A stretch of 64,000 nt of DNA, from assembly GCA_965661345.1 (NCBI GenBank), contig CBFIDK010000005.1:17301-81300 (forward strand). The letters run 5' to 3'. The position numbers and the translations under genes were made by a program. This stretch comes from Flavobacteriales bacterium (GTDB lineage Bacteria > Bacteroidota > Bacteroidia > Flavobacteriales > UBA7312). Below the pieces are notes generated by a model. It searched no databases. It had not been told where the DNA came from and was given only the letters and a program-made list of their open reading frames with translations. Below, in pieces: positions 1 through 32,839 of this stretch (positions are counted from its first letter, which is position 1; the number at the start of each line of letters is the position of its first letter).

Positions 1-1
1 C

Positions 2-148
2 TGCTTAATAATTATTGTTACTATGATTGGTGCGCTATTTTTGCATATCGTGCGAAAAGATGGTGGTAAAGCTATACTTGTTAACTTTTTGTATATCTTT
101 ATCTCTTCAGTTGTACTTTTTGGTAACCTCTATTTTAACTATTTATGA
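2..148 (+). CDS. 3' end of a small multi-pass membrane protein (DoxX-like paralogue of the next ORF), cut by the window edge
   Basis: Frame 2 is open from the window edge to TGA 146-148. The translation ...TMIGALFLHIVRKDGGKAILVNFLYIF... parallels ...MLGALVMHIKVKDPIKKSVPAL... in the next ORF. There is an ATGA stop/start overlap at 145-148. Confidence 0.4.
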   Translation, partial: CLIIIVTMIGALFLHIVRKDGGKAILVNFLYIFISSVVLFGNLYFNYL

Positions 149-510
149 ATGTATTTACACTAATTAATCTAATTATAGCTTTAGGCATCTTAAACGTTTG
201 GTTTTTTCGGTTTAACAAGAAAACACCATTTAGGGGTGGAGAATCTAACACACTAAAAGAAGAGTTTTTGGTGTATGGATTGCCAACTTGGTTTATGTAT
301 GTTGTTGGCTTCATTAAGGTCTCTCTAGCTGTTTTACTAATTGTCGGCATTTGGGTTAAGGAAATTAACCTCTATGTTATTTCATTAATGATTTTGTTAA
401 TGTTGGGCGCTTTAGTGATGCACATTAAAGTAAAAGACCCTATTAAAAAATCAGTGCCTGCATTAAGTATTTTATTATTGCTATTGGCTATATTTATTAA
501 TAACGCATAG
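145..510 (+). CDS. small 4-TM membrane protein, DoxX-like
   Basis: 121-aa ORF that is hydrophobic throughout with about four predicted helices. The family call is from general resemblance only. Confidence 0.5.
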   Translation: MNVFTLINLIIALGILNVWFFRFNKKTPFRGGESNTLKEEFLVYGLPTWFMYVVGFIKVSLAVLLIVGIWVKEINLYVISLMILLMLGALVMHIKVKDPIKKSVPALSILLLLLAIFINNA

Positions 511-544
511 GCTAAAACAAGGACCCTTTGGTCCATCAAAAGAC

Positions 545-576
545 ACCCTCTTTCTAAAATAGATTGAGGGTTTTTT
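545..576 (+). terminator. rho-independent terminator after the DoxX-like genes
   Basis: Stem ACCCTC (545-550) / GAGGGT (566-571) followed by a T-run at 571-576. A second small hairpin GGACC-CTTT-GGTCC lies at 521-534. Confidence 0.5.
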
Positions 577-585
577 GTTAGACGC

Positions 586-617
586 TTTGCTTATCTGACA
601 TAAAATAGATAGATTTG
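586..617 (+). promoter_or_regulatory. Bacteroidota sigma-A type promoter inside the left repeat, pointing into the cassette block
   Basis: TTTG at 586-589, then a 20-nt spacer, then TAGATTTG (TAnnTTTG) at 610-617. Confidence 0.4.
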
Positions 618-664
618 AGGTGGAAAAACGTTTAAACTTAAAGCCGCTACCGCCATGAAAAAGC
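586..664 (+). repeat. left copy of a ~79-bp direct repeat bracketing the cassette block (partner at 8671-8748)
   Basis: By-eye alignment of tttgcttatctgacataaaatagatagatttgaggtggaaaaacgtttaaacttaaagccgctaccgccatgaaaaagc against the right copy gives roughly 85 % identity. Confidence 0.8.
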
Positions 665-981
665 TAGGTTTTTTTGCCAATACCTTTCAATTACCCAAGA
701 AATATCTTTTTCTGACTGGACTAGAATTTAGTTTTGCAACGCATTTATTGGAACAGGGTTTGAGCCTAAGACATATACAAACCCTGTTGGGACATAGTAG
801 CTCAAAAACAACAGAGCGTTACACACAAGTATCAACGCAAGAAATAGGACGTATAGTTAACCCTTTAGAGGCTTACTACAGCAGCATGAGTGGCACAATA
901 CATTCCAAAAATGGAAGTATCAAACCACTAAAAGAAAGAGATAACGAAAATAAACACCATAAAGGTGTACATATACAATAG
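655..981 (+). pseudogene. tyrosine recombinase/integrase remnant (C-terminal box II region only) inside a chimeric ORF
   Basis: Only aa ~20-65 ([36 protein letters not shown]) resemble the catalytic C-terminus (H/R...Y). The N-terminal ~250 aa of a normal integrase are absent. The ORF start (atgaaaaagctaggttttttt) is repeat-derived, with a similar sequence at 8651-8676. Confidence 0.7.
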
Positions 982-987
982 TTAGCT
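968..987 (+). other. first cassette junction (attI-like or attC 3' half): catatacaataG|TTAGCT
   Basis: It matches the 3' consensus of the downstream attC elements (..ATAC..A.(C)GTTRRR). TTAGCT at 982-987 is exactly complementary to the 5' box AGCTAA(C) of the first attC at 4273-4279. Confidence 0.55.
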
Positions 988-1020
988 GCAAGCAAAACGA
1001 ACATCGAATAATCTAAACAA

Positions 1021-4000
1021 ATGGAAATAAAACTACCAAATATTGAAAAGCTTATTTTTTCAAATGGAAGTAATAGTATTAAACAATACTATCATCAAGC
1101 TCCAACGTTAGATTTTGAATTTGTTCAAAGCAATCCATTCATCCTCTCTTCGAACGGAGAATCCTTCTTTATTACAAGTAATATTGATGACGATATTCCA
1201 GAAAATTGTAGTTATGCGCTACTATCTGCAAGAAAACCGCAAAAGAAGTATTTTTTATCTGATTCTTTAAAAATTAAAAGGTGGTTAAAACATCCATCAT
1301 TTGAGGATTTAACTCCGCAAAATGTATTAGCCTCATGGAAAGATAATTTTAAGTTTATTAAAGAAGATACCGAAAATGAAATTAAGGGATTACGTCCTCC
1401 CCAAATAGGTGCTCTATATTCCATACTTGCTCATGTGCAAGCTCCTGAAGACAGAGGTATTGTTGTAATGCCAACAGGGACTGGGAAAACAGAAACAATG
1501 CTATCAACTTTAGTCGCTAATATGTGCGAAAAGTTATTGGTAGCCGTTCCTTCTGATTCATTACGTACACAACTCTCAAACAAGTTTAACACACTTGGAT
1601 TGTTAAGAGAATTTGGAATGGTGGATGAATCTTGCCACAACCCAATTGTAGCTGTAATCAATCAAAAATTCGAAAATGAAAATGAGCTATTAGAGTTCGT
1701 TTCAAAAGCGAATGTCGTTGTAACAACTATGAGTATTCTCGCTGGTAGTCAATATCAACAACAAATAACTTTCGCCAATTCCTTTAGCCATTTTTTTGTT
1801 GATGAAGCTCATCATTCAGAAGCGACTACTTGGAAAAAAATCATAACACAATTTGATAAGAAGAAAGTGTTTCTCTTTACTGCTACACCATTTAGAAATG
1901 ATGGTAAGAACTTGGATGGAAAATTCATTTTTAACTTCTCTCTAAAAGAAGCACAAAATCAAGGGTATTATAAAACAATAAATTATTTGCCAATAAGAGA
2001 GTATGATAAAGAAGAGGCAGATAAGAAAATAGCAGAAAGGGCTGTAAATCAATTAAGGGAGGATATTGCAAATGGTTATCCCCATATAATCATGGCAAGA
2101 TGTGTTTCAAAGAATAGAGCTAAAGAAGTCTTTGCCCACTATGAGAGTCATGAAGATTTGAAACCAATAATTGTTTATACAGGAATACCGAGTTTAAAGG
2201 AAAAAGTAGAAGCAATAAAAGCAAAGAGACATAGTATTGTAGTTTGTGTAAATATGTTAGGTGAAGGGTTTGACCTTCCAGAACTTAAGATTGCGGCAAT
2301 TCATGATGAAAGACAAAGCTTACCTATTACTCTTCAATTTGTAGGTAGGTTTACTAGGACATCTTTTGATAGATTGGGTAACGCAAGCTTTATTACAAAC
2401 ATGGCCTACCCACCTATTCAACAAGAGTTGAATCATCTTTATGCCAAAAATGCCGACTGGAATCTCCTACTTCCTAATATGAGTGAAGGTGCCACAGATA
2501 AAGAAATTGATTTTCAAGAATTCTTAGATGGATTTAATGATCTTGAAAATTCTAAAATACCATTTCAAAATATCAATCCTGCTATGAGTTCAGTTGTTTT
2601 TCGAAATAATGGAAGCGATTGGCATCCTACTAACTGGAAGGAAGGAATTAATAACCTAGGTACATATGAACATCAATTTAGTAAACACAATTCTGAAAAA
2701 AATACTCTGGTAATAATCTTAGGTAAAGTTGAAAAGGTTGAATGGGGTGATTTTGATATGGTTCAAAACATGGATTGGAATATGATTGTTGTTCATTGGG
2801 ATTTAAGACCAAACAAAAATTTGGTATTCGTACATACGTCTCTGAAAAATCTATCATACACGAAGTTAGTTAATGCAATTTTTGGAGATGATACTACTCA
2901 AATCAAGGGCATGGATATGTTTAAAATTTTCCATGATGTGAAAAGACTTACCCTCTACAATGTAGGTGCAAGAAAAGGTACAGGACGAGATATAAGCTTT
3001 CAATCGTTTTTTGGAAAAGGAGTTCAAGATGGATTAAAACTCTTGGAACAAGGAACTTTAATTAAAAACAATGTCTTTGGTGTAGGCTTTAAAGAGGGTG
3101 AAAAAGTTTCATTAGGATGCTCTGTCAAAGGTAAAGTTTGGTCGTATTTAAGAGGTAACCTAAATGAGTTGACACAATGGTGTCAAAACATTGGAGATGT
3201 GCTTGTTGACCCAAATATCAATCCAAATACTGTTTTGGAAAACACCCTTATACCCATAACAATATTTGAAAGACCTAATGTTATTCCAATTGCAGTTGAA
3301 TGGCATCATGAGATGTTTGAACATTCTGAAAATAGATATAGAATTATTATTAAAGATACTAATTACGACCTATCTAATTCCGAATTAAACATCATCGAAA
3401 GTCCTATTAATTATCCTTTACTCTTTTGTTTCAAATGTGAAGATTACACCATTGAATATGAGTTTGTATTAGGTTCTAGAATTGTTGAAGGGGAACGAGT
3501 TGCTTTTCATGAAATCAGAAAGGTTTCAGCAGAGAATCCAATTATTACTTACGGAAGTAAGAGCGTAACTCTGACTAGTTTCTTGCAAGAATTTACTCCT
3601 ACTATTTGGTTTGTAAATGGTGGGCAGTTATTTCAAAATAGCTATGTTGTGCCAAAACCTTGGGTTGATGGAATTTCTATTGATAATATTATTTCTATGA
3701 ATTGGGATGGTGTTTCTATAAGAAAAGAGGCACAGGGTATCGCCCCATATGAAAAGGATTCAATTCAATATCATTTTATTAATAAAATTAGAGATGATTT
3801 TGAAATCATTTATGATGATGACGGTTCAGGAGAAATTGCAGATGTTATAGGGATTAATGATGGAGATAATAAAATAGATATTCATTTATTTCATTTGAAG
3901 TACGCTAAAGAAGGGCGAACGGGAAACGATATTGGAAATTTTTATGAAGTATGTGGACAAGCACAAAAATCACTTAATTGGAAATATCGAAATGGTAGAG

Positions 4001-4263
4001 ACTTTTTTAATCATCTTTTAAGACGTGTGACTAAAACAAAAAATGGAGCCACCTGTAGTAGAATAATAAAAGGGACTGAAAATGATTTAGAATTATTATT
4101 AAATGCGGCTAAATGGACCAAAGAAATGAAATTCCACATTTACATTGTTCAACCAAGTTTAGTAAAAGGAAAAGGTTCAGATAACATAATGTTACTTTTG
4201 GGAAATACTCATCACTACCTTCATACAGTGGGTAATGTAGAATTAAAAGTATATTCCAGTTAA
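1021..4263 (+). CDS. 1080-aa SF2 (DEAD/DEAH, type III Res-like) helicase with a large uncharacterised middle region and a C-terminal nuclease-like module
   Basis: Motif I MPTGTGKTE (1468-1494), motif II DEAH (1801-1812), motif III FTATP, motif V MLGEGFDLPEL, motif VI QFVGRFTRT (2335-2361). The C-terminus has GSGEIADVIG...IHLFHLKYAK (3820-3909). Confidence 0.85.
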   Translation: MEIKLPNIEKLIFSNGSNSIKQYYHQAPTLDFEFVQSNPFILSSNGESFFITSNIDDDIPENCSYALLSARKPQKKYFLSDSLKIKRWLKHPSFEDLTPQNVLASWKDNFKFIKEDTENEIKGLRPPQIGALYSILAHVQAPEDRGIVVMPTGTGKTETMLSTLVANMCEKLLVAVPSDSLRTQLSNKFNTLGLLREFGMVDESCHNPIVAVINQKFENENELLEFVSKANVVVTTMSILAGSQYQQQITFANSFSHFFVDEAHHSEATTWKKIITQFDKKKVFLFTATPFRNDGKNLDGKFIFNFSLKEAQNQGYYKTINYLPIREYDKEEADKKIAERAVNQLREDIANGYPHIIMARCVSKNRAKEVFAHYESHEDLKPIIVYTGIPSLKEKVEAIKAKRHSIVVCVNMLGEGFDLPELKIAAIHDERQSLPITLQFVGRFTRTSFDRLGNASFITNMAYPPIQQELNHLYAKNADWNLLLPNMSEGATDKEIDFQEFLDGFNDLENSKIPFQNINPAMSSVVFRNNGSDWHPTNWKEGINNLGTYEHQFSKHNSEKNTLVIILGKVEKVEWGDFDMVQNMDWNMIVVHWDLRPNKNLVFVHTSLKNLSYTKLVNAIFGDDTTQIKGMDMFKIFHDVKRLTLYNVGARKGTGRDISFQSFFGKGVQDGLKLLEQGTLIKNNVFGVGFKEGEKVSLGCSVKGKVWSYLRGNLNELTQWCQNIGDVLVDPNINPNTVLENTLIPITIFERPNVIPIAVEWHHEMFEHSENRYRIIIKDTNYDLSNSELNIIESPINYPLLFCFKCEDYTIEYEFVLGSRIVEGERVAFHEIRKVSAENPIITYGSKSVTLTSFLQEFTPTIWFVNGGQLFQNSYVVPKPWVDGISIDNIISMNWDGVSIRKEAQGIAPYEKDSIQYHFINKIRDDFEIIYDDDGSGEIADVIGINDGDNKIDIHLFHLKYAKEGRTGNDIGNFYEVCGQAQKSLNWKYRNGRDFFNHLLRRVTKTKNGATCSRIIKGTENDLELLLNAAKWTKEMKFHIYIVQPSLVKGKGSDNIMLLLGNTHHYLHTVGNVELKVYSS

Positions 4264-4272
4264 AAAGCCAGC

Positions 4273-4340
4273 AGCTAACAATGTATAAAAATCATAGCCA
4301 CCCTGCGGGATGTCTACGCTTCTTATACTGAACGTTAGCA
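4273..4340 (+). repeat. attC-like site 1 (68 bp)
   Basis: AGCTAAC-aatgtataa ... ttatactgaac-GTTAGCA. It starts 10 nt after the helicase stop and has no T-tract. Confidence 0.7.
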
Positions 4341-4344
4341 TTCA

Positions 4345-5115
4345 TTGATAAAATTTATGTATAAAAACACAATCTTAAAAATCAAGGCATTTCTATTAAA
4401 TGAAACTCTTTCAATAAGCGAAAGAATAAATTTGTTATCGAAGGATGCTGTATATCGAATTTTCATTCATCCTTTTTGTAGTCAAATTAGTTCTGAAATA
4501 TTGCACTATACAGATTATAAGTTCAATAACATTGTTGAACTCAAAACAAAGATTAAGGAAATAGTGAGAACAATACAACCAAGACCTCTTGGATTGCACA
4601 GCTATAAAGACTTTGAAATAGCCGAATTATCAAAAATATTTAATCAGATTGAAGTCAAAAGAGAATCAATTATCGATTTTATTGAAAATTTAGAGATAGC
4701 TACAACTGACTATTTCTATTTTAGGAATATTGACTTACAGGAATATTTAAAAGTGATCAAGACATTGGAACAAAAATTTCAGTTCAAAATATGCTTTGAT
4801 GCATTTGAACAAAATAGTTATCCATTGAAATCAATGACAATGCTGGAAAAAAATAATGTAGACTATTATTTTAATGAAACGTTAAGCGATTTAATCAGTC
4901 CTCAATTTTCCAGGTTTTATAATTTGGATAAACATGGTGGTAATGAAGCTGATCGCATTGATTGTTTAGAAAATGATTTGTCATGTAATAGAAACTGTGA
5001 ATGGTTGATATTATGTACAAACGAATATGTGTATTTCTTTGGAGATTGGATTATAGAATTTATGACGGATAAATGGGGGCAAATTAAATTGAACGAATGC
5101 CAACACCGTGTATAA
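4345..5115 (+). CDS. hypothetical protein (cassette 2 cargo); the true start may be ATG 4357
   Basis: 256-aa ORF with a TTG start in the track and an in-frame ATG 12 nt later. I recognise no motif. The last codons (..QHRV*) are encoded by the attC 5' box. Confidence 0.6.
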   Translation: MIKFMYKNTILKIKAFLLNETLSISERINLLSKDAVYRIFIHPFCSQISSEILHYTDYKFNNIVELKTKIKEIVRTIQPRPLGLHSYKDFEIAELSKIFNQIEVKRESIIDFIENLEIATTDYFYFRNIDLQEYLKVIKTLEQKFQFKICFDAFEQNSYPLKSMTMLEKNNVDYYFNETLSDLISPQFSRFYNLDKHGGNEADRIDCLENDLSCNRNCEWLILCTNEYVYFFGDWIIEFMTDKWGQIKLNECQHRV

Positions 5116-5229
5116 GTAATAGCGGTTTAAGTGATAAAACAAAAGTATAAACATAAAACAAAGGTCAGTGCAAAACCGAAAGGCTTGTGAGTAAAAATCC
5201 GCTACTACTCATACACAAGACCGTTATAG
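5098..5229 (+). repeat. attC-like site 2 (132 bp)
   Basis: TGCCAAC-accgtgtataagtaatagcgg ... ccgctactactcatacacaagacc-GTTATAG forms a long imperfect stem. Confidence 0.7.
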
Positions 5230-5238
5230 CCAATTAGA

Positions 5239-6081
5239 ATGAACAGAAGAAAATTTATAAGACGAACTTTTTTGGGAACAGTTGGGATTGGGTTTTTAAC
5301 TGGACTTTACACTTGGCAAATTGAACCTTTTTGGTTAGAATTTGTGAAGCGTAAAATGCTAATCTCTAATCTACCTGATAATCTGATTGGAAAAAAGCTT
5401 ATGCAGATTAGTGATATACACGTTGGGAATAGATTTGATTATAATTATATAATTGAATCATTTAAAAAAGCACAAAAGTTCAACCCTGATTTTGTTGTTT
5501 ACACTGGAGACTATGTAAGCTACGAAAACGAAAAGCAATTTAAACAATTAGAAGAAGTATTGAAACACACAGTTAAAGGAAAAATTGGAACTGTTGGAAT
5601 ACTCGGCAATCACGATTATGGAAAAAATTGGGCAGAACAAAATGTAGCTGATAAAATTTCAGAGCAATTGACTAACGCAGGAATTGAAGTGCTTAGAAAT
5701 GAACAATTAGATATTTCGGGGTTGAATATAATCGGATTTGATGATTATTGGGCATTGAATTTTGAACCCGAAAAAGTGATGAAAAACTATGACCAGAACA
5801 AAGCCAATTTATTGTTATGCCACAATCCTGATGTCTGCGATTTAGACGTTTGGAATGGATATAAAGGTTGGATCTTATCTGGACATACGCACGGAGGGCA
5901 GTGTAAACCACCATTTTTAAACGCACCAATATTACCTGTTAAGAATAAGAGATATTCGCAAGGCGAAATTGATTTGAATGACGGGAGAACCTTATATATT
6001 AATAGAGCGGTTGGGCACTTATGGCAAGTGAGATTTAACGTCAGACCTGAAATAACAATATTTGAACTTGAAAAAGTATAA
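5239..6081 (+). CDS. Tat-signal metallophosphoesterase (calcineurin-like), cassette 3 cargo
   Basis: MNRRKFIRRTFLG is a twin-arginine leader. The phosphoesterase motifs are DIHVGN, GDYV, GNHDY and GHTHGGQ. Confidence 0.8.
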   Translation: MNRRKFIRRTFLGTVGIGFLTGLYTWQIEPFWLEFVKRKMLISNLPDNLIGKKLMQISDIHVGNRFDYNYIIESFKKAQKFNPDFVVYTGDYVSYENEKQFKQLEEVLKHTVKGKIGTVGILGNHDYGKNWAEQNVADKISEQLTNAGIEVLRNEQLDISGLNIIGFDDYWALNFEPEKVMKNYDQNKANLLLCHNPDVCDLDVWNGYKGWILSGHTHGGQCKPPFLNAPILPVKNKRYSQGEIDLNDGRTLYINRAVGHLWQVRFNVRPEITIFELEKV

Positions 6082-6090
6082 AATAACTGG

Positions 6091-6221
6091 CTACAACACC
6101 GTGTATAATTCATTGCTAGTTCTAGCCTACTTACGAAAATCCTGGCGGATTTTCTATTTGGTTTGTATTTGCTAAATTAGTTACTGAAACACGCAACGAA
6201 ATCATACACAAACCGTTAGGC
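6091..6221 (+). repeat. attC-like site 3 (131 bp)
   Basis: CTACAAC-accgtgtataa ... catacacaaacc-GTTAGGC. It shares the 15-mer caacaccgtgtataa with site 2 and has an internal perfect hairpin gaaaatcc-tggc-ggattttc. Confidence 0.7.
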
Positions 6222-6236
6222 TACATTAAGAAAAAA

Positions 6237-6413
6237 ATGGGTGAACTCAAAAAACTTGATACTTCTCATATCGGAGGAAGAATATTTGAAGTCACAAAAA
6301 ACAACTTATATATTTTTGAAAAGTTTTCTAATTGGCTTATAAAAGTTTCATCTGAATTAAATGAAAATAGGTATAAAATAGACACTGAAAATTTTAAAAC
6401 AGTCTTTGAATAA
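6237..6413 (+). CDS. 58-aa hypothetical protein (cassette 4 cargo; below the ORF-track cutoff)
   Basis: Translated by hand: MGELKKLDTSHIGGRIFEVTKNNLYIFEKFSNWLIKVSSELNENRYKIDTENFKTVFE*. The ATG is 21 nt after the cassette junction. Confidence 0.4.
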   Translation: MGELKKLDTSHIGGRIFEVTKNNLYIFEKFSNWLIKVSSELNENRYKIDTENFKTVFE

Positions 6414-6467
6414 ATGAAAGTAAAATTACTGGATGGAAAATCAAAAAAACAAACTAGATTAAAAAAC

Positions 6468-6540
6468 GGCTAACAATAGCTGCAAAGCATAGGCCTAACC
6501 AACCAAACCGTTCCTACTCTTCATAGCAGGAATGTAAGCA
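6468..6540 (+). repeat. attC-like site 4 (73 bp, degenerate 3' box GTAAGCA)
   Basis: GGCTAAC-aatagctgc ... gcaggaat-GTAAGCA. An alternative perfect 5' box GCCTAAC lies at 6493-6499. Confidence 0.55.
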
Positions 6541-6562
6541 GCACTTAAAAAAGACAAAAAAT

Positions 6563-7615
6563 ATGATTAGAAAAATCTTAATTTCAGTAATAACAATTTT
6601 AACTTTTGTTTTAAACGCCAAATCACAAGATACTCTTGTGTCGGCTTTTTTTGGACTTGATAATGGACTACCAAGTTTATTATGTGGTACACCGGGAAGT
6701 CAGTTAGATGGTATGCCTGTGAATTTTATGTTTCCAATAGATGTATCCACCTTGTCAGAATCTGATTTTGAAGTTATAGATAGCCTTGGGAATATACACA
6801 TACCGATGTGTGCTGTTCTAGCACCAGCAAATGAAAACGGAGAAAATCGAACTGTGCTTCTGTTAGGTGAATTTGGTACCGCTGTTACCAATCCTCCTGT
6901 TGAAGTTAGAGTTGTAGGGGATTTATTTACGACTGATACTTTATCCGGAGAGTCCGCTTGTTCAGAAATCATAAACCTAAACGGAATCTCTACCAAGAAT
7001 ATTATTCCGCTCGCTGATGGTCCAAGTCTATTTTTTGCCCAAAAAATTTATGGTACTCTGAATGAATGTAGTTCAGGAACACAGACGATTCAAGTTGCTT
7101 GGAATGGTGGCATTACACCGTTTATAAGTGGGGATACCGAATCTGACTTATTTCAATACTATATTGGTTATTCTGATAGTTCGGGAGTTCTAATTCCACA
7201 TGTACCTATGTCGATAGCAGATATAAATGACAACGACAACTTTCACCAACTTTGTTTTTCTACAAGTGATAAAATTGTTAAAATTTCAATGATGGCTAAC
7301 ACGGTCGAAGACCCAAACCAAGACCCAAATTTATACAGCGAAATTGATGTTAGTTCCTGCCCTACTTTGACAAATATTGAAGAAACCCTTTTCGAAAAAG
7401 GGTATAAAATTTACCCGAATCCGTTTTCAGATGAAATTTTTGTTGAGAATCTTCTTGGTGATGAATACTTCATTATTTATGACTTTTTAGGGCGAAATAT
7501 TACAGAAGGAAAATATTCAGGAACAATAAAAATACCAGAAACAAAATCAGGTATATACTATATTACCATCCTAAACAATACCAATCAGACAACCTACAAG
7601 TTAATTAAAAGATAA
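6563..7615 (+). CDS. secreted protein with a T9SS C-terminal sorting domain (cassette 5 cargo)
   Basis: There is an N-terminal signal peptide. The C-terminal ~75 aa (KIYPNPFSDEIFVENL...GIYYITILNN...YKLIKR) fit the Por secretion tail pattern. Confidence 0.75.
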   Translation: MIRKILISVITILTFVLNAKSQDTLVSAFFGLDNGLPSLLCGTPGSQLDGMPVNFMFPIDVSTLSESDFEVIDSLGNIHIPMCAVLAPANENGENRTVLLLGEFGTAVTNPPVEVRVVGDLFTTDTLSGESACSEIINLNGISTKNIIPLADGPSLFFAQKIYGTLNECSSGTQTIQVAWNGGITPFISGDTESDLFQYYIGYSDSSGVLIPHVPMSIADINDNDNFHQLCFSTSDKIVKISMMANTVEDPNQDPNLYSEIDVSSCPTLTNIEETLFEKGYKIYPNPFSDEIFVENLLGDEYFIIYDFLGRNITEGKYSGTIKIPETKSGIYYITILNNTNQTTYKLIKR

Positions 7616-7616
7616 C

Positions 7617-7687
7617 TGCTTACAACAATGTGTATAATGTTCATGCCTCCCATTCGGTAGGCACGCCACATACACTAACTGTTGGGC
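7617..7687 (+). repeat. attC-like site 5 (71 bp)
   Basis: TGCTTAC-aacaatgtgtata ... catacactaact-GTTGGGC, with central stem gcctccc/ggtaggc. Confidence 0.7.
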
Positions 7688-7700
7688 GTAATTAAAACAA

Positions 7701-8576
7701 ATGGGATTCAAAAATTTTGACTTACTAGACTTTGAATTTGTTGAAGTACGATTTAATTGCTCAAATTGTGGAACACGTCTGCTATCCGAAAAAATTGAAA
7801 TTCCGGAAATATTTGACCCAGAATATCACGACAAAGAAGACTTTTTTTACACAAATGCTAGAGAAAAAACTTGTCCTAAATGCGATAAATGGCATATCAT
7901 TCACGTAGGCTTTGAAGATAATGAGGAAAGCGGTTATATCGAAATAGAAAAAGTTGAGAAAAAGGACATTCTAGAAGCTATTACTTATGACTATGGACTA
8001 TATTCCTATGAAGAAGACCAAGTAGACGCAATTCTTCGCTCTGATAATTCAATTGAAAGATTTGAGGAAGAGATAAAAAGTCTAATGGAACTTAACTCAC
8101 AATCTTTTAAAAAAGAAACACACGAGAAAACTATAAGAAAATTGGTTTTTTCAGGTGGTATAACCTGTCTTGAAGATTATTTATCTTCTACATTAATCAA
8201 GGAAGTCATTCAAGATGAAGTATTCTTCAGGAATTTTGTAAAAACTTACAAAAGAATAAATAACCGAAAATTCGAATTGGGAAATATTTATGACCAACTA
8301 GATAGCTTGTATGATATCGTCAAAAAAGAACTTTTAGATGTAATTTATCACGACCTCCCAAAAGTCAGAGGAATGTATAAAGATTCATTGGGAGTAATTT
8401 TTCCATCAATTGAGAATCTAATGAAGAACATTAAAACAAGACACGATATAGTGCATCGAAATGGAAAAACAAAAAATGGTAAATTTATTTTATTGAATAA
8501 GGAAGATATAGAATCACATTTAAAAGAAATTCAAAAATTCGTAAATAATATCGAAAAACAGATTAAAGAAATATAA
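7701..8576 (+). CDS. zinc-ribbon + HEPN-like protein (cassette 6 cargo)
   Basis: CxxC...CxxC (C20/C23, C58/C61; nt 7758-7883). The C-terminal helical domain carries R247-HDIV-H252 (Rx4H, nt 8439-8456). Confidence 0.6.
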   Translation: MGFKNFDLLDFEFVEVRFNCSNCGTRLLSEKIEIPEIFDPEYHDKEDFFYTNAREKTCPKCDKWHIIHVGFEDNEESGYIEIEKVEKKDILEAITYDYGLYSYEEDQVDAILRSDNSIERFEEEIKSLMELNSQSFKKETHEKTIRKLVFSGGITCLEDYLSSTLIKEVIQDEVFFRNFVKTYKRINNRKFELGNIYDQLDSLYDIVKKELLDVIYHDLPKVRGMYKDSLGVIFPSIENLMKNIKTRHDIVHRNGKTKNGKFILLNKEDIESHLKEIQKFVNNIEKQIKEI

Positions 8577-8584
8577 AAAACTAC

Positions 8585-8737
8585 GCCCAACAATGGCTAT
8601 AAGTAATTGCTTGTTCTCGCCTACACTTCAACTGGCTCAAGGCATAGCTTATGAAAATCCAGCTAGGTTTTTTGCCTATCTAACATAAAAAAGATAAATT
8701 TGAGTTGGAAAAACGAATAAACTTAAAGCCGTTAGCC
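8585..8737 (+). repeat. attC-like site 6 (153 bp), terminal site of the array
   Basis: GCCCAAC-aatggctataagt ... acttaaagcc-GTTAGCC. Its 3' two-thirds coincide with the right direct repeat. Confidence 0.65.
8671..8702 (+). promoter_or_regulatory. Bacteroidota-type promoter in the right repeat, facing the 8816 gene
   Basis: TTTG at 8671-8674, then a 20-nt spacer, then TAAATTTG at 8695-8702. Confidence 0.4.
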
Positions 8738-8748
8738 TCATGAAAAGC
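8671..8748 (+). repeat. right copy of the ~79-bp direct repeat (partner at 586-664)
   Basis: tttgcctatctaacataaaaaagataaatttgagttggaaaaacgaataaacttaaagccgttagcctcatgaaaagc. Confidence 0.8.
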
Positions 8749-8815
8749 CCACCCAAACTAGCCCTTTTTATGCCCCAGCAAATACATTGAATTAATTTAT
8801 TAAACCCTTAAAGAA

Positions 8816-10114
8816 ATGAAATTACCTTCCATTAGTTACCTCCTGAACAAATCCAAAGAATCTTTCTTGCGATTTCCCGCTACTCTTATTAGTGCATTGG
8901 TATCGGTCTGCGCCGCTATTTTCCTCATAGAGTATAGCAATGATATTACCAATACGTTTCCCTACATAAACATTCTAATAACATCGGCTTTGGGAATCCC
9001 CTTGTTCTTTGGTTTATCAATGTTTAACTCAAGCCAAAACTTCAACCGCACAAAAAGTGCCTTTAGCCACCTTTTGTGTCTGGCTATATTAGTGGTCATT
9101 TACTACACCCTTCCCGATTCTGACACCACTCACAACACCAGTATACCATACATCAGATACGGCATATTTAATGTAATTGTTCACCTTCTGGTTTCTTTTA
9201 TTCCATATCTAAAAGGCAATGCGCTAAACGGCTTTTGGAATTTTAACAAAATACTATTTATCCGCTTCTGGACGTCTGCTCTTTATTCAGGCTTCCTATA
9301 CATTGGGCTAATCCTGGCTTTATCGGCTCTAAACTTACTTTTTGACGTTGATATTGACGATGACCTATATTTTGAATTCTATGTCGTCATTATAGGGCTG
9401 TTTAACACATGGTTTTTCGTTTCTGGAATACCAAGCTCATTAAAAAACCTTGAAAACAACCACGAGTACCCCAACGGATTAAAAATATTTGCACAGTATG
9501 TTTTACTGCCTTTATTAACCCTTTATTTAATTATCCTTTATGCCTACGGAACAAAAATTATCGTTTTGTGGAATTGGCCAAAAGGAATAGTGTCGTATTT
9601 AATCTCTTGTGTTTCGGTGTTGGGAATACTTACCGTCTTGCTTCTGTATCCTTACGGTCAGCTAAAAAACAATTCTTGGATTAAGAAGTTTTCCCGAATA
9701 TTCTATTTCTCATTAATTCCACTTGTCGCAATTCTATTTATAGCCATCGGCTTTAGAATTGGGGATTATGGGTTTACCATCAACAGGTATGTTATTGTGT
9801 TGTTAGGCGTTTGGCTAAGCTTTGTTGCCTTGTATTTTTCTTTCGGAAAAAAGAATATAAAACTAATTCCGATGTCTTTGGCACTCATCCTTGCGCTAAT
9901 GTCTTTTGGGCCTTGGAGCGTGTTTAGCGTGGGCGAAAAGAGCCAAATTAATAGACTTGTATCAATACTAGAAGAAAACAATTTACTACAAGATGGGAAG
10001 GTTGTAAACGAAGTCATTTGGAAAACCGATAAGATACCCTCTCTTTATTCTAACGAGGTAAGAAACCCAAATGATGGTGTTCTAGTTGACTCTTTGCACA
10101 ATGAGGTTCTATAA
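8816..10114 (+). CDS. multi-pass membrane protein (DUF4153-like), possibly the 5' part of a frameshifted gene
   Basis: 432 aa with about 11 hydrophobic segments. The next ORF's frame is already open from 10105, overlapping this stop. Confidence 0.6.
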   Translation: MKLPSISYLLNKSKESFLRFPATLISALVSVCAAIFLIEYSNDITNTFPYINILITSALGIPLFFGLSMFNSSQNFNRTKSAFSHLLCLAILVVIYYTLPDSDTTHNTSIPYIRYGIFNVIVHLLVSFIPYLKGNALNGFWNFNKILFIRFWTSALYSGFLYIGLILALSALNLLFDVDIDDDLYFEFYVVIIGLFNTWFFVSGIPSSLKNLENNHEYPNGLKIFAQYVLLPLLTLYLIILYAYGTKIIVLWNWPKGIVSYLISCVSVLGILTVLLLYPYGQLKNNSWIKKFSRIFYFSLIPLVAILFIAIGFRIGDYGFTINRYVIVLLGVWLSFVALYFSFGKKNIKLIPMSLALILALMSFGPWSVFSVGEKSQINRLVSILEENNLLQDGKVVNEVIWKTDKIPSLYSNEVRNPNDGVLVDSLHNEVL

Positions 10115-10188
10115 TTAATTACCTCGACAAACACCACGGGTTTTCGGGGATTTCGCACTTATACGCTCAAAACATAGATTCTTTAATC

Positions 10189-10692
10189 GTGCTTTGCTTG
10201 GACTCAAACAAATACACCGATGAGTCCAACATTTATACCCGCTCTTTGGGCTTATCTCCTTACGAAAAATACTCATCACATTATGATTACTACACCTTTA
10301 ATGTTGAAGACATTATTGTTACCCAGGTTACATCCTACGATTACGTATTAGATTTTGACCTAAGTCAGTATGGAGGAATCTTGGATAGGGTTGATTTTGA
10401 ATTAAATGGAGAAGAATATTTTATAGAATTCAATCCTTCAGATCCAAATACACTAATGTTTGTTGAAAATAATAATCCGTTAGAAATTAGTGTTGAAAAA
10501 ATGCTGTCAAGGCTAACCAATACATATGGGTTTAAATCGGAATCGAGAATACATCAATCAGAAATGGAGATTGAAAAAAAGACAAGTCGCTTTGATATAA
10601 AAATGTTGTTTCATTCTATTGACTATAAAACCTCCAATGACTCAACCTATATTTCCTCCATGCACGGTAAAGTTCTTCTTAAAATACGGTAG
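10189..10692 (+). CDS. soluble domain ORF, probably the 3' part of the preceding gene
   Basis: GTG start in the track, frame open back to 10105, same strand, 75-nt gap. Confidence 0.45.
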   Translation: MLCLDSNKYTDESNIYTRSLGLSPYEKYSSHYDYYTFNVEDIIVTQVTSYDYVLDFDLSQYGGILDRVDFELNGEEYFIEFNPSDPNTLMFVENNNPLEISVEKMLSRLTNTYGFKSESRIHQSEMEIEKKTSRFDIKMLFHSIDYKTSNDSTYISSMHGKVLLKIR

Positions 10693-10733
10693 TAGCTTTC
10701 TTTTAATGAGTAAATAATCAAACTAAAAATAAA

Positions 10734-11954
10734 ATGAAAAAACAAATTTTACTTATTGGGGTGGCGGTACTGCTTCTCTCCTGCTCTTCACCGCTTGATA
10801 AAAAGTTTAACAAAGACACAGCTGAGGAAGCTGAAACAATAAAAAAGGCAAATGACCTTATCACAGAAAAGAAATACAATACCGCATTCAATTTACTTGA
10901 TAAGTTTGACCCAACAAACGATAAGCCCAACGTTGTTCTGCTAAAAGAGGAAATTTTGCTGAATTATTTTGTTACAAGCATTTTACACCAAATGTTTTCA
11001 TTAGTAGACATTAAAAAAAATGAGGATATTTTAGATTATAGAGGGAAAGAAGGGTCGTTTAACACTCAACTGTTTGCCGTGGACAGTATTCTAACAAGGC
11101 TTATCACTATGTATCCGACAAACTGCGAGCTTAAAAAAGGACTAGCTAATTATTATTATGAAGTGCATTTGAAATATGGTGGACGATGGCTAAAAGATGA
11201 CAAAGAATTATTTCCAATAATACAAACGAATTTTGAAAAAGCTATTGATGAGGGTTGTGCAGATTATTTATCGCATTACGTTTTAGCTTACATAAACCTA
11301 TTGCAAGAAAAAAATGAAGAAAGTATTCCGCATTTTCTAGCCTCAATAGAACTGAACGACAAATATGCCAGTTCACATTACAACTTAGCATATGCTTATT
11401 ATTTTACAAACGACGAAGAGAAAGCGTTGAAACACGCTAAACGCTCGCTTGACTTATACAGCGATAAAATATATAAAAGCGATGCTGCTCGAATGATTGG
11501 TCAAATTTATACCGAACTCCAAGATGATAAAAATGCTATCGCTTATTACGAAGAAGCAGATAAAATTGACCCTGAAAATTATTACAATATTAAGCCGATT
11601 CTCCACTTATACTTAAAGACAAATAATAAAAACACAAAGCAAACCACAAATGCATTTTTCAACCTTGATCCAACAAACCCAACAATTTACTATGACCTTG
11701 AAGAGGTTTATTTCAGCAACAATAAAGGCAACGAACTAATTGATTTTTACAAATCACAATTTCCTATGTTCAAAAACAACAACACGGTTCAGGGAGGGTT
11801 AAATTTTGGTTTAGCAAGAATCTATCTCCAAACCGACAAGAATATTGCGAAAGGTTTTTTTATCAAAGCGAAACAAGATTTTGAAAAGGTATATGATAAA
11901 AATCACGACGTTTTTAGAGTAATTGACGCGGGTCTAGAAAGGTGTGAAATTTAA
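10734..11954 (+). CDS. TPR-repeat lipoprotein
   Basis: Lipobox LLLSC and TPR-like A..Y/NLAYAYY repeats. Confidence 0.65.
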   Translation: MKKQILLIGVAVLLLSCSSPLDKKFNKDTAEEAETIKKANDLITEKKYNTAFNLLDKFDPTNDKPNVVLLKEEILLNYFVTSILHQMFSLVDIKKNEDILDYRGKEGSFNTQLFAVDSILTRLITMYPTNCELKKGLANYYYEVHLKYGGRWLKDDKELFPIIQTNFEKAIDEGCADYLSHYVLAYINLLQEKNEESIPHFLASIELNDKYASSHYNLAYAYYFTNDEEKALKHAKRSLDLYSDKIYKSDAARMIGQIYTELQDDKNAIAYYEEADKIDPENYYNIKPILHLYLKTNNKNTKQTTNAFFNLDPTNPTIYYDLEEVYFSNNKGNELIDFYKSQFPMFKNNNTVQGGLNFGLARIYLQTDKNIAKGFFIKAKQDFEKVYDKNHDVFRVIDAGLERCEI

Positions 11955-12034
11955 TTGTTACACGAAATACCTTTGCCAACTGTTGAATAATTAGTTAATT
12001 CGTTTTTACAAAAGCAGTAAAGACAAGGTACATT

Positions 12035-14497
12035 ATGAAAAAAATTATTTACTCGTTATTTATTTGTCTTTTTACGTTTATTTTTTGGAAAGAAAGCGTT
12101 TCACTAGAACTCTCGTTTTTACATGCCTGTGTGTGGTTTTTATTTTCTTATTTTTTATGGAAAACGGCTTACTATGGGTTATTAGCTTATGGTCTTTTTA
12201 CATATTTAATCCTTTCACTCACAGAGTATTTTCAATTTTCTGCTGATGTAATTAGCTACGGCTATAGCGCTTTGGTTTTTTTCTTGTCTAGCGCCTACAT
12301 CTTAATAAGCCAAAAAGTATCTTCGGTTTGGAATAATGTTCTTAAAATAACGTATTGGTTTTGTTGTTCCCTAGTTCTTTTTGTTCCCTTGATGTTTATG
12401 CTTTATTACGTTCAATTTGGAACAGCCGTTACCAACGAAACATTATACGCCTTGTTTCAGACTAACCGACAAGAGAGCTTCGATTATATCAACGACTTTA
12501 TTTCGGTTTACCTCCTTGTTTTACTAGCTGTAACAATAGGGGGCTCTTGGTTTTTTATTGCTTCGCAAAAGGTCAAAAAAACTCGTCTTCTATTACCAAT
12601 TATAATACTTGTTTCCAGTGCATTTTTTCTTGCTATAAGCCCACCACCCGCCTTGCCAAAAATGTTTTGGGAGGCAGTAAAAACGTACAAGCAAGAACTT
12701 GTTTTATTCAACAAAACAGCCTCAGAAATGGCCGTTAATAACATTCCGATAGAGGCATTCAAAAAAGAAAACGGCGAAACGCATATCGTGGTTATTGGCG
12801 AGTCTTTACACAAAAACCACATGAGTTTGTATGGATATCCCAGAAAAACGACGCCCAAACTAGATAGTCTACAGTTTGTTGACGGATTTATTTTGTTCAA
12901 TAACGCCTACGCCAACCATACCCATACAATTGAAGTGCTAAAATTGTCATTAACTGAGGCAAATCAATACAATCAAAAAGAATTTTATGAGTCCTTATCC
13001 ATTTTGGATATGCTAAACGCTAGCAATAACGAAACCTATTGGATAAGTAATCAAAATCTAAAAGGAGCATGGGATAATGTTGTTGGGGTAATCGCTGAAA
13101 GGTCAAATCACCTCTTAATGATTAATGCTTCTATTGGAAAAACCTCAAAAATGCAACACTTTGATGGGCAATGCATCGAGGAAATCAAGCGAATCGTAAA
13201 TACCCCAAGCAAAAAAAACAAAGTGATTTTCGTGCATTTAATGGGTAGCCATAGCCCTTATGATAGCCGATACCCAAGAGCTGAATTTCGTGCTTTTAGG
13301 GAAGCGCATCAAGGGGATGTTGGTTTTGTAGGTGCACAAATCAAGAATTTATCTGACTACGACAATAGCATCTTGTACAACGATTATGTGGTAGGCAGTA
13401 TCTTAGAGCTTCTCCAAAGCCAAAAAGGCGCCAACAGTTTCTTTTATTTATCAGATCACGCCGATGATGTCTTACAACAAAAAGGACACAATTCAGGCTC
13501 TTTCACTTATGAAATGACTGAAGTTCCAATGATGAGTTGGATGAGTGAAGAATACAGAAACAAGTACACCGCCACACACCAGCAGCTATTGAAAAACCAA
13601 AACAAATGGTATTCTAACGACTTGTTGTTCAATACCCTATTGGGTGTTTTTCAAATTGAAAGCCCAAAGTACGACAGTAAATTTGATCTCACTTCGGCCA
13701 ACTATCAACCAACTGACAGTAGCATTAAAGTTTTACATAACGCACTTTATACTGCCGATGACAATTACATTTATTGGCAAAAAGTCAACATTGACTATCT
13801 GATTAAAAACAAATTACATAAAAGAGTGTATCCACATCGCATAAATTCAATAGCTAAATTACAACAGGTCTGGAAAAGCGGTATGCGTTCGTTTGAGCTT
13901 GATGTTTTTTTTGAAAAGGATAGTGTTCAGCGCTTTAGGGTTGGTCACCATAAAGGAAAAATGGGGCGCGAGCTTGAGGTTTTATTAAACAGCATTAACC
14001 ATTATGAGCTACAAAATATTTGGATCGACTTTAAAAACTTAAACAAAAAAAATGCTAAAGCAGCTTTAAATGAATTAGAACGGTTAGACGACTTGTTCAA
14101 TATTAAAGAAAAGGCCCTTATAGAATCTAACACAGATGACGCTGTTTTTAGCTTGTTGAGTCAATATGGTTGGAAAACATCCTATTATCTTCCGACCTCA
14201 AAAGTGTTGGATTTAATGAGCGCCAATAATAAAGAAGGTCTTTCAATATTGTCTAAGGATATCAGTCAGCAAATTTTAGATCAAAAGGTTTCTGCTATTT
14301 CATTTGACGATAGGCTATACCCCTTTGTTAAAAATCACCTTGAAAACCTCATCTCTAAGGAAATAGCATACCACTGTTGGTACGGTCCAGAACTAAAAAG
14401 CCCAAGCTTTGAAACTGAACTAAAAAACAATCCTCTTTTTAAAGACCGAAGAGTTCACTCCTTGCTTTCGCCTTACTACTCCTTATTTCATTTATAA
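12035..14497 (+). CDS. membrane-anchored sulfatase-family phosphoethanolamine-transferase-like protein with an extra C-terminal GDPD/PI-PLC-like domain
   Basis: N-terminal TM bundle and HIVVIGESLHKNHMSLYGYPRKTTPKLD (12782-12860). The C-terminal extension has PHR (H601 R602) and FELD (E621, D623). Confidence 0.65.
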   Translation: MKKIIYSLFICLFTFIFWKESVSLELSFLHACVWFLFSYFLWKTAYYGLLAYGLFTYLILSLTEYFQFSADVISYGYSALVFFLSSAYILISQKVSSVWNNVLKITYWFCCSLVLFVPLMFMLYYVQFGTAVTNETLYALFQTNRQESFDYINDFISVYLLVLLAVTIGGSWFFIASQKVKKTRLLLPIIILVSSAFFLAISPPPALPKMFWEAVKTYKQELVLFNKTASEMAVNNIPIEAFKKENGETHIVVIGESLHKNHMSLYGYPRKTTPKLDSLQFVDGFILFNNAYANHTHTIEVLKLSLTEANQYNQKEFYESLSILDMLNASNNETYWISNQNLKGAWDNVVGVIAERSNHLLMINASIGKTSKMQHFDGQCIEEIKRIVNTPSKKNKVIFVHLMGSHSPYDSRYPRAEFRAFREAHQGDVGFVGAQIKNLSDYDNSILYNDYVVGSILELLQSQKGANSFFYLSDHADDVLQQKGHNSGSFTYEMTEVPMMSWMSEEYRNKYTATHQQLLKNQNKWYSNDLLFNTLLGVFQIESPKYDSKFDLTSANYQPTDSSIKVLHNALYTADDNYIYWQKVNIDYLIKNKLHKRVYPHRINSIAKLQQVWKSGMRSFELDVFFEKDSVQRFRVGHHKGKMGRELEVLLNSINHYELQNIWIDFKNLNKKNAKAALNELERLDDLFNIKEKALIESNTDDAVFSLLSQYGWKTSYYLPTSKVLDLMSANNKEGLSILSKDISQQILDQKVSAISFDDRLYPFVKNHLENLISKEIAYHCWYGPELKSPSFETELKNNPLFKDRRVHSLLSPYYSLFHL

Positions 14498-29418: not shown

Positions 29419-29492
29419 TCCTCCTTAGCTCAGTTGGTTAGAGCATCTGACTGTTAATCAGAGGGTCCTTGGTTCGAGTCCAAGAGGGGGAG
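29419..29492 (+). tRNA. tRNA-Asn (GTT)
   Basis: The cloverleaf can be read by eye. Acceptor TCCTCCT/AGGGGGA (one G-U), D-arm TAGCTCAGTTGGTTAGAGC, anticodon stem TCTGA/TCAGA with loop CT-GTT-AA, T-arm CTTGG-TTCGAGT-CCAAG, discriminator G. No CCA is encoded. Confidence 0.9.
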
Positions 29493-29500
29493 CAAAAGAC

Positions 29501-29529
29501 AAAGCATCTGCGAAAGTGGGTGCTTTTTT
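29501..29529. terminator. rho-independent terminator after the tRNA (11-bp stem, GAAA tetraloop)
   Basis: aaagcatctgc-GAAA-gtgggtgcttt followed by a T-run. It also lies downstream of the minus-strand small ORF. Confidence 0.6.
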
Positions 29530-29551
29530 GCTTTTAGAGGATGAATGATTT

Positions 29552-29734
29552 TTAATTTTCCTCTTTATTTTTACTCTTTCTTAAAAGTTTATCAACACCA
29601 ATCCATATAAAGATTACTGGCCAGTAAACTCTTATTAACTCAGCTATGGATACTTGAATAAAATTCAGATTGTTTGCTAGAAATAATAACCCTATTAGAA
29701 TAAATAAAATTCCAATACTTTTTCCTTTTTGCAT
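29552..29734 (-). CDS. 60-aa two-TM membrane protein (LiaF/DUF5668-like)
   Basis: Two hydrophobic helices and a basic tail. Support is weak. Confidence 0.4.
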   Translation of the reverse strand: MQKGKSIGILFILIGLLFLANNLNFIQVSIAELIRVYWPVIFIWIGVDKLLRKSKNKEEN

Positions 29735-29832
29735 AATTTTAAGTTTAATGATATAATACTATTAACAAAATATGTTTGAAAGCTCTTTTGTTATTCTACA
29801 AATTAAGCACTTAAAATGTATATTTTCGTTTG

Positions 29833-32829: not shown

Positions 32830-32839
32830 TCTTTTACCA

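Follow-up and report, generated by a model that had tools for sequence, protein, structure and literature searches.

Integrons are the textbook system of gene-cassette capture, and surveys regard the Bacteroidota as practically free of them (PMC9024848; bioRxiv 10.1101/2024.07.02.601686). What, then, is the run of six co-oriented genes, each closed by an attC-like palindrome, that lies near the start of a 64,000-nucleotide stretch from a Flavobacteriales bacterium (assembly GCA_965661345.1, contig CBFIDK010000005.1, positions 17,301 to 81,300; hereafter the window, meaning this whole stretch)? A first-pass annotation made from the letters and their open reading frames (ORFs) had read the run as a cassette array that recombines at G|TT, decayed and sedentary, in a Bacteroidota genome, and our analysis bears out that core reading. 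Its further reading of the array as integron-type holds in part: the array works in an integron-like manner, but it is not a canonical integron, and two of its sites (sites 4 and 6) are degenerate and hybrid, respectively. We consider it very probable that the region 655–8746 belongs to an integron-like gene-capture system that occurs across Bacteroidia, and that it is a chromosomal, sedentary and now decaying example of that system. The array is best classed not as a canonical integron but with a separate integron-like family of Bacteroidia, apparently undescribed, of which it is a decayed representative.

The window sequence at 982–8731 carries six co-oriented cassettes on the plus strand, each closed by an imperfect AAC...GTT palindrome, where a cassette is a promoterless ORF plus an imperfect inverted repeat of 60–196 nt. 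Six plus-strand ORFs lie between 1021 and 8576 with a palindrome 3′ of each, and all six palindromes, together with all seven boxes, are where the first-pass annotation had placed them. At the head of the array is a remnant of a recombinase gene, which that annotation had overlooked. The features are as follows.

655–981, plus strand: recombinase remnant of 108 codons, co-oriented with the cassettes; C-terminal end of a tyrosine recombinase
954–987, plus strand: attI-like site; hairpin ACACC-ATAAA-GGTGT at 954–968, then ACATATACAATAG|TTAGCT
982–4334, plus strand: cassette 1; ORF 1021–4263, a 1080-aa ResIII/DEAD helicase; attC-like site 1 at 4273–4340
4335–5223, plus strand: cassette 2; ORF 4357–5115, 252 aa, no family match; site 2 at 5098–5229 (132 nt)
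5224–6215, plus strand: cassette 3; ORF 5239–6081, a YaeI/LpxG-like metallophosphoesterase; site 3 at 6091–6221 (131 nt)
6216–6534, plus strand: cassette 4; ORF 6237–6413, 58 aa, no family match; site 4 at 6468–6540, degenerate
6535–7681, plus strand: cassette 5; ORF 6563–7615, a 350-aa secreted protein with a C-terminal sorting domain of the type IX secretion system (T9SS); site 5 at 7620–7687 (68 nt)
7682–8731, plus strand: cassette 6; ORF 7701–8576, 291 aa, no family match; terminal site 6 at 8585–8737, hybrid

The stop codon of cassette 2 falls within site 2. The close spacing of ORF starts to junctions that had been described is real, with a measured range of 15–39 nt in place of 10–39 nt. 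The GC contents first given (25–33 % in the array against 40–48 % elsewhere) have to be replaced by measured values of 32.5 % for the array and 37.5–39.4 % for the flanks.

If strand exchange takes place at G|TT, the first ~13 nt of each cassette should be complementary to the box that precedes its own hairpin. The bases that follow G|TT do complement the cassette's own 5′ box, and they do so over a longer stretch than the 6 nt claimed earlier, reaching 13 nt. We scored this complementarity as the number of matches over the ten positions beyond the conserved triplet, and the cognate pairs of junction (J) and 5′ box (A) gave these values.

J0/A1: 8 of 10 matches
J1/A2: 8 of 10 matches
J2/A3: 8 of 10 matches
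J3/A4: 5 of 10 matches (weaker)
J4/A5: 6 of 10 matches (weaker)
J5/A6: 9 of 10 matches

The total for the window is 44 of 60, a value attained by one of the 720 possible box orders, the true one. When the window is pooled with the arrays of Polaribacter and Mangrovimonas described below (three arrays, 24 cassettes), 177 of 240 positions match, compared with 87 ± 7.5 for permuted boxes, and none of 20,000 permutations attains 177. One register in the first-pass annotation needed correction: the conserved AAC of site 5, placed there at 7621–7623, is at 7624–7626. In the corrected register the 3′ triplet of site 4 is AAT (6531–6533), and it is followed by GTAAGCAG, the exact complement of CTGCTTAC at 7616–7623.

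The sites are also specific to the array. The motif of the 5′ box, YAAC-AMY-GTGTATAA, has just five occurrences in the 64 kb, all on the plus strand (4276, 5101, 6094, 7623 and 8588). A covariance model built for the family (R1) likewise gives no match outside the array, save for a single chance match of 20 bits at 60618–60647. We rejected this match as a real site; it is a 30-nt AAC...GTT coincidence within coding sequence. The first-pass annotation had named dispersal of the palindromes as repetitive extragenic palindromic (REP) or terminator elements as the observation that would speak against cassettes, and we find none outside the array in the 64 kb.

Comparison of close relatives junction by junction shows that they vary cassette by cassette and do not carry an invariant block, the other observation that the first-pass annotation had named as counting against cassettes. 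In a conspecific strain with the same flanking genes (locus L033; flanks 98.6–98.9 % identical to the window), the sequence matches the window up to ...CAATAG|TT, continues into a different cassette of 422 aa, and regains identity at G|TTAGCA (4334|4335), such that the swapped first cassette is bounded at 981|982 and 4334|4335. The same strain is without cassettes 4–6, and both there and in L058 cassette 3 is followed directly by the terminal site. In L062, cassette 3 lies between two unrelated neighbours, with identity starting at 5223|5224 and ending at 6215|6216, both of them G|TT junctions. Many short-read contigs consist of a single cassette, with contig ends that cluster within sites. 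In a different species, whose DUF4153 protein is 79 % identical to that encoded next to the window's array, other co-oriented cassettes occupy the same place upstream of the DUF4153 gene, with no recombinase left (L036). We found no empty site; in the nearest other species, too, the place upstream of DUF4153 is taken by cassettes. A second conserved location, downstream of a Pyr_redox gene, is common to L008, L044 and L045. Together, these results mark the platforms themselves as sedentary.

Some further observations concern these loci. The contig L001 is 99.7 % identical to the window apart from its T9SS cassette protein (6960–8009, against 6563–7615 in the window), which is only 95 % identical, and the other five cassette proteins are 100 % identical. 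At the array head of L036 (3100–3270) a palindromic unit of ~30 nt (TGACAACCGAAGGTTCGTCA), REP-like in appearance, is repeated about five times in tandem. In the window the DUF4153 gene (8816–10692) is cut by a stop codon at 10112–10114, giving a 432-aa ORF and then a separate 167-aa ORF; the conspecific contigs L033, L040, L049 and L058 have an uninterrupted 626-aa protein, identical over the first 432 residues.

We next consider the structure of the sites. Read along the top strand, a site has a 7-nt box ending in AAC, 3–4 unpaired nt, a stem arm of ~16 bp, a variable loop, the second stem arm, 5–6 unpaired nt and a GTT box, and site lengths are bimodal (60–68 nt and 130–132 nt). As single-stranded DNA, site 1 folds to −12.7 kcal/mol on the bottom strand (z −4.9) and to −5.5 on the top strand (z −0.6), and site 5 to −13.7 (z −3.0) and −9.2 (z −1.1), respectively. 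The bottom strand is the more stable one at sites 1, 2, 3 and 5. The check that the first-pass annotation had suggested, folding the bottom strand and looking for extrahelical bases, thus came out in two ways: these four sites fold better on that strand, but the extrahelical bases are mostly missing.

For an alignment of the bottom strands of 14 sites we specified the R triplet and a 15-bp stem. Pairs are formed in 92.8 % of the cells, compared with 74 % after shuffling and 23–54 % when the partners are slid, and 10 of the 15 stem pairs show compensatory changes. RNAalifold, run on 19 full-length sites (~131 nt), arrived unaided at the same structure and added an AACG/TGTT wobble beside the triplet in 19 of 19. 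The AAC and GTT triplets are invariant in both alignments (14/14 and 19/19), and the stem is an uninterrupted 15 bp, with no bulged bases, in 10 of the 14 sites. Two stem positions hold a conserved G.T wobble (in 13 and 11 of the 14 sites), and the extended R pairing has a further conserved A/G difference at position 11 (GTT-N7-ATT versus GTT-N7-GTT). Altogether G.T wobbles occur at three or four fixed positions of the bottom strand; on the top strand these become A.C mismatches, and hence only the bottom strand folds well. This asymmetry suggests an obvious candidate for the signal that might govern strand choice.

Scores on R1 are 60.4 bits for site 1 and 52.7 bits for site 5 in the window, and 55.8 bits for site 2 as measured on its identical copy in L001; with filters off R1 did not span the 131-nt sites of the window, and with default filters it found such a site in L001. 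The case for site 3 therefore comes only from inspection by eye, from its fold and from the 19-site alignment. An Rfam scan of 1–12000 at E ≤ 10 returned nothing relevant; Rfam is without an attC family. The earlier remark that the palindromes have no T-tract is nearly right, and no T-tract follows the main stem; site 3 has an internal hairpin with a T-rich tail (6135–6154), which is the sole terminator-like feature, and site 6 has a T6 run.

Two of the sites depart from this structure. Site 4 is degenerate, with a fold like that of shuffled sequence (z −0.27), an R1 score of 16.3 bits (E 0.11) and a 3′ triplet of GTA/AAT in place of GTT. Site 6 is a hybrid of a 5′ arm of the family type and a 3′ part that belongs to the backbone (8671–8746, 76 nt), and the usual 5-nt spacer is missing. 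With these two sites and a dead recombinase, the array is decaying.

The recombinase remnant identifies the kind of enzyme that once headed the array. The ORF at 655–981 matches PF00589 positions 135–171, and its homology is limited to 721–975, ~85 C-terminal residues that are 66 % identical to residues 317–401 of a 402-aa protein of Polaribacter. The remnant no longer includes the catalytic Arg, Lys, His and Arg that precede box II, so the window recombinase is inactive, and the window holds no second copy elsewhere. The remnant's stop codon, TAG (979–981), provides the G of the first G|TT, which places the crossover between G981 and T982, and the ACATATACAATAG that precedes it resembles the 3′ half of a cassette site. 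This attI-like layout is the same in L013, L012 and L044, and L033 is identical to the window through G|TT and then diverges. On the other side of the array, the backbone to the right of the terminal junction (8741–8749) has TGAAAAGCC in common with Polaribacter (L013 19320–19330). A junction sequence GTTACCTGC(AAGC) recurs in Polaribacter (at its terminal junction), in Draconibacterium (L043 13383–13395) and in L009 (11353–11361), and the first junction of the window is GTTAGCTGCAAGC; the recurring right-of-junction sequence may represent the right half, still conserved, of an ancestral attI.

Nearly all homologues of the remnant are short (60–186 aa) and are internal-deletion derivatives of 380–400-aa proteins. 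The same internally deleted 108-aa form, with the N-terminal MKNLRLIP... fused to box II, is found in many contigs at 55–99 % identity (proteins P0016–P0029; L008 10001–10327) and at two or more different chromosomal locations; shared descent, recurrent deletion and retained function are indistinguishable as its cause. Many clusters retain a length of exactly 108 codons, but we make no claim of selection on the 108-aa remnant, because the database holds called ORFs only and shorter broken forms also occur.

A scan of species-representative genomes for intact systems shows what a complete one looks like. On the complete chromosome of Polaribacter sp. HL-MS24 (L013; NZ_CP136415), a 402-aa recombinase gene ending in ...CATATACACTAG|TTACCACAC is followed by eight cassettes, in which every R′′ (5′) box is the exact 9–10-nt reverse complement of the preceding junction. 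The array of Mangrovimonas yunxiaonensis LY01 (L022; NZ_JPFK01000003) has ten or more sites behind a 401-aa recombinase, with an OLD-family nuclease in cassette 1. Full-length recombinases with an exact J0/R′′ match are also encoded by Draconibacterium mangrovi (378 aa; GTTGTGTGT/ACACACAAC), by a Marinoscillum sp. (381 aa) and on two Flavobacteriaceae metagenome contigs (L012, 409 aa; L044, 402 aa). The system is therefore found across Flavobacteriales, Marinilabiliales and Cytophagales. At least six loci have, at the head of the array, a recombinase gene whose 3′ end carries an attI-like site, remnants of the gene head the cassettes in L009, L014 and L015, and in all loci the recombinase is co-oriented with the cassettes with attI at the 3′ end of its gene. 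This is not the divergent layout of integrons, in which attI and the Pc promoter lie between the integrase gene and the cassettes.

The intact gene of L044 (ERZ23491261 scaffold_9, 10001–12308; 402 aa) comes from the same metagenome sample as the window contig (scaffold_2083) and lies at a different locus; it cannot be assigned to the window genome. The L044 scaffold, of 313 kb, stops right after its first cassette. As to cargo, the cassette 1 helicase of the window resembles restriction and defence enzymes, with weak similarity to PbeA and to Dnd restriction, and a tblastn search for the window's cassettes in arrays from other genera was negative. A leaning of the cargo toward defence is seen in this restriction-like helicase (1021–4263) and in the Mangrovimonas nuclease (L022 10620–12272; PADLOC Old, 1e-57). 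In L009 a HepT/MNT toxin–antitoxin pair (9050–9675) stands immediately upstream of the recombinase remnant.

The full-length relatives allow a comparison with integron integrases. The recombinase belongs to the Xer/IntI branch and has a Phage_int_SAM_4 N-domain and an extra N-terminal domain of ~95 aa; its best solved relatives are XerC-like 4a8e, XerA 5hxy and VchIntIA, and its commonest and closest plasmid-borne relative is IntI1, at 33 % identity. A full-length relative scores 237 bits on NF040815 (cut-off 220), and by way of this model the NCBI name for the relatives is 'site-specific tyrosine recombinase/integron integrase'. As the criterion for an integron integrase we took the additional domain that distinguishes IntI, located near patch III (Messier & Roy 2001; intI_Cterm of IntegronFinder), which we looked for in the full-length relatives, the window remnant ending short of this region. 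On TIGR02249 they reach 204–218 bits, short of the cut-off of 265; the match is broken in two, with profile positions ~180–238 skipped, and residues 207–246 of VchIntIA have no counterpart in their alignment.

The sites differ in a parallel way. A surrogate model of classical attC sites, built from seven GC-rich class 1 sites of two plasmids and much narrower than the IntegronFinder model, gives its own class 1 sites 41–66 bits, site 1 only 11 bits and the other sites here nothing; conversely, R1 gives class 1 attC sites at most 12 bits. The extrahelical G and T (in the bottom-strand L′′/R′′ arm) are plain in the class 1 sites and missing from most sites here. With extrahelical bases and additional domain both absent, strand choice would have to work differently. 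Taken together, these findings incline us, if only slightly, to the wider proposal that Bacteroidia (Flavobacteriales, Marinilabiliales, Cytophagales) harbour an undescribed integron-like class, with an Xer/IntI recombinase that has no additional domain, with sites that have no extrahelical bases and with the strand marked by G.T wobbles, which would be a sister lineage or an early form of integrons.

The mechanism that we propose is as follows. A tyrosine recombinase of the Xer/IntI branch, whose gene is observed directly upstream of the cassettes and co-oriented with them, would be the catalyst, and an attI-like site overlaps the 3′ end of that gene. Strand exchange would occur at G|TT, where the comparison of strains shows cassettes to be gained, lost and swapped precisely. 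Recombination probably acts on the bottom strand in folded form, as it does in integrons, a role to which the computed asymmetry points. The cassettes are probably transcribed by read-through from a promoter upstream of the recombinase gene. As the recombinase of the window is dead, any further movement of its cassettes would need a recombinase in trans.

The array is bracketed by two further features, a pair of direct repeats.

586–661, plus strand: 76-nt direct repeat, copy 1; promoter motif TTTG at 586–589 ... TAGATTTG at 610–617; runs into the start codon of the remnant
8671–8746, plus strand: 76-nt direct repeat, copy 2; promoter motif TTTG ... TAAATTTG; forms the 3′ part of site 6 and precedes the DUF4153 gene

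The copies are 86 % identical, together bracket the remnant plus the array, and carry a promoter motif of the Bacteroidetes type (TTTG...TAnnTTTG). The repeat is absent from 11 other loci and from the Polaribacter flanks, being confined to the window's lineage. It could be a duplication that gave DUF4153 a promoter, or the footprint of a movement of the whole module. Elsewhere in the window, a tRNA-Asn gene (29419–29493) is followed by the stretch of lowest GC (27.7 %; 29419–34000). We considered the low-GC stretch at 30–34 kb as a second island and rejected it, as it encodes the housekeeping proteins RNase R, RpiB and an M28 peptidase.

These repeats bear on one of the alternative explanations, that of a single integrative island between the DoxX and DUF4153 genes with its own tyrosine recombinase, in which the 76-nt repeats would be attL and attR and the palindromes incidental. 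The repeats do bracket exactly the remnant and the array, and the GC content of the array is 5–7 points lower than that of its flanks. We nevertheless think such an island very unlikely, because conspecific strains differ by single cassettes rather than as one block, the corresponding place in a different species holds other cassettes and no repeat, none of the family's other loci has the repeat, and the internal junction logic is far beyond chance; it could be true in addition, as the history of the platform. A canonical integron remnant or cluster of attC sites lacking integron-integrases (CALIN), with standard attC sites that IntegronFinder would call and a normal IntI that has merely decayed here, is another alternative. 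In its favour, the array shares the architecture, the AAC/GTT triplets, the G|TT logic and the bottom-strand AACG of class 1 attC sites, and the recombinase has in IntI1 its closest plasmid-borne relatives (33 %) and a TIGR02249 score of 214 bits. We regard it as unlikely all the same: that score is below 265 and comes from a split match that skips ~180–238, VchIntIA 207–246 is unmatched, most stems are uninterrupted with no bulged bases, and the class 1 attC model and the family model fail on each other's sites. Moreover, integrons of Bacteroidota are unreported except for Salinibacter (PMC9024848; bioRxiv 10.1101/2024.07.02.601686): IntegronFinder 2.0 found there the only complete integron in Bacteroidetes, beyond In0 elements found earlier (PMC9024848), a 2024 preprint counts Bacteroidota among clades 'previously found without any integrons' (bioRxiv 10.1101/2024.07.02.601686), and reviews that list Bacteroidota do not specify the members that carry integrons. 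A prior description of the recombinase and site family was not found in the literature searched, which did not extend to subscription journals, and an earlier description is possible.

Movement of the modules by the host's housekeeping Xer, as in Acinetobacter pdif modules and with no dedicated system, would account for cassettes that moved recently although the window's own recombinase is dead, and would fit an Xer-like recombinase family whose best solved relatives are XerC-like 4a8e and XerA 5hxy. It seems to us highly improbable, given that the sites are co-oriented hairpins of 60–196 nt with a covarying stem and not 28-bp dif-like sites, and that a specific recombinase with an attI-like site stands at the array head in at least six loci. 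That the palindromes are immobile, generic sequences of the REP or transcription-terminator kind, as their position at the 3′ ends of genes and the one terminator-like hairpin within site 3 might hint, has a next to negligible probability. The main stem is not followed by a T-tract, and the reading is refuted by the confinement of the palindromes to the array within the 64 kb, by the complementarity of each palindrome to the first bases of its own cassette and by the swaps of cassettes at G|TT.

Several points weigh against our own interpretation, that of an integron-like system of Bacteroidia. With the window recombinase dead, the recent turnover seen in L033 and L062 requires a trans-acting copy that is unseen. 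The proposed link between recombinase and sites comes from adjacency in about ten loci, and the single-stranded nature of the substrate is suggested solely by an asymmetry of the sequence. The comparison model derives from only seven GC-rich class 1 sites, sites 4 and 6 fit the site model poorly, and the interpretation does not account for the 76-nt direct repeat around the whole module. Finally, the distal difference between the window and L033 lies not at G|TT but within the 5′ arms of sites 3 and 6, which resemble each other; it looks like homologous rather than site-specific recombination between those arms.

If marine Flavobacteriaceae and related orders have a system parallel to integrons, this would carry cassette-based gene capture into a major phylum, and would reveal a pool of cassettes of which several, such as the window helicase and the Mangrovimonas OLD-family nuclease, are defence-like. 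The standard detection tool likely misses such arrays, and current integron finders probably overlook them. If our interpretation is true, the system is a natural experiment, in which a tyrosine recombinase recognises a folded single strand with neither the domain nor the bulges thought essential, and it bears on how integrons arose from Xer-like recombinases. Intact copies in cultured strains make the system directly testable (Polaribacter sp. HL-MS24 and Mangrovimonas yunxiaonensis LY01).

Among known systems, integrons share with the arrays described here the cassette logic, the AAC and GTT triplets, the G|TT crossover, unpaired spacers, a variable loop and the bottom-strand bias, and the G that follows AAC on the bottom strand of class 1 attC sites is present here also. 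Sedentary chromosomal integrons and CALINs, as defined in Cury et al. 2016 (PMC4889954), are similar in further respects: those of Vibrio and Xanthomonas likewise have promoterless co-oriented cassettes, sites that are alike within an array and a recombinase that is often decayed, together with unannotatable or defence-like cargo, a conserved chromosomal position and cassette turnover at the level of strains. The differences lie in the recombinase, which here has no IntI additional domain and has an extra N-terminal domain of ~95 aa, and in the sites, most of which have conserved G.T wobbles in place of the extrahelical bases of integron sites. The spacers are 3–4 and 5–6 nt here as against 5 and 6 nt in integrons, the R-box pairing here reaches 13 bp, and bimodal site lengths are, unlike in integrons, a feature of the sites here. 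In a structure from 2006 by MacDonald and colleagues, the additional domain reportedly contacts the extrahelical bases, and the joint absence of both from the present system is therefore coherent.

In the reverse-orientation integrons of Treponema and other Spirochaetota the recombinase gene is, as here, co-oriented with the cassettes, with attI downstream of it. The integrases of these integrons presumably keep the IntI additional domain. In the arrays described here, by contrast, that domain is absent and the attI crossover overlaps the stop codon itself; the Spirochaetota enzymes are described as IntI (PMC3607928, PMC9668308). XerA and other Xer proteins of the archaeal type are kin to the recombinase by NF040815 score and by solved relatives, but XerA serves to resolve chromosomes at one dif site whereas the recombinase here heads a cassette array, and archaeal IntIs are reported to have the additional domain (PMC9668308). 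The pdif modules of Acinetobacter plasmids resemble the cassettes in being discrete gene modules bounded by Xer-type recombination sites. Their sites are 28 bp long, with two 11-bp arms around a 6–8-bp spacer, alternate in orientation and are used by the host XerC and XerD, whereas the sites here are hairpins of 60–196 nt, all co-oriented, that adjoin a dedicated recombinase.

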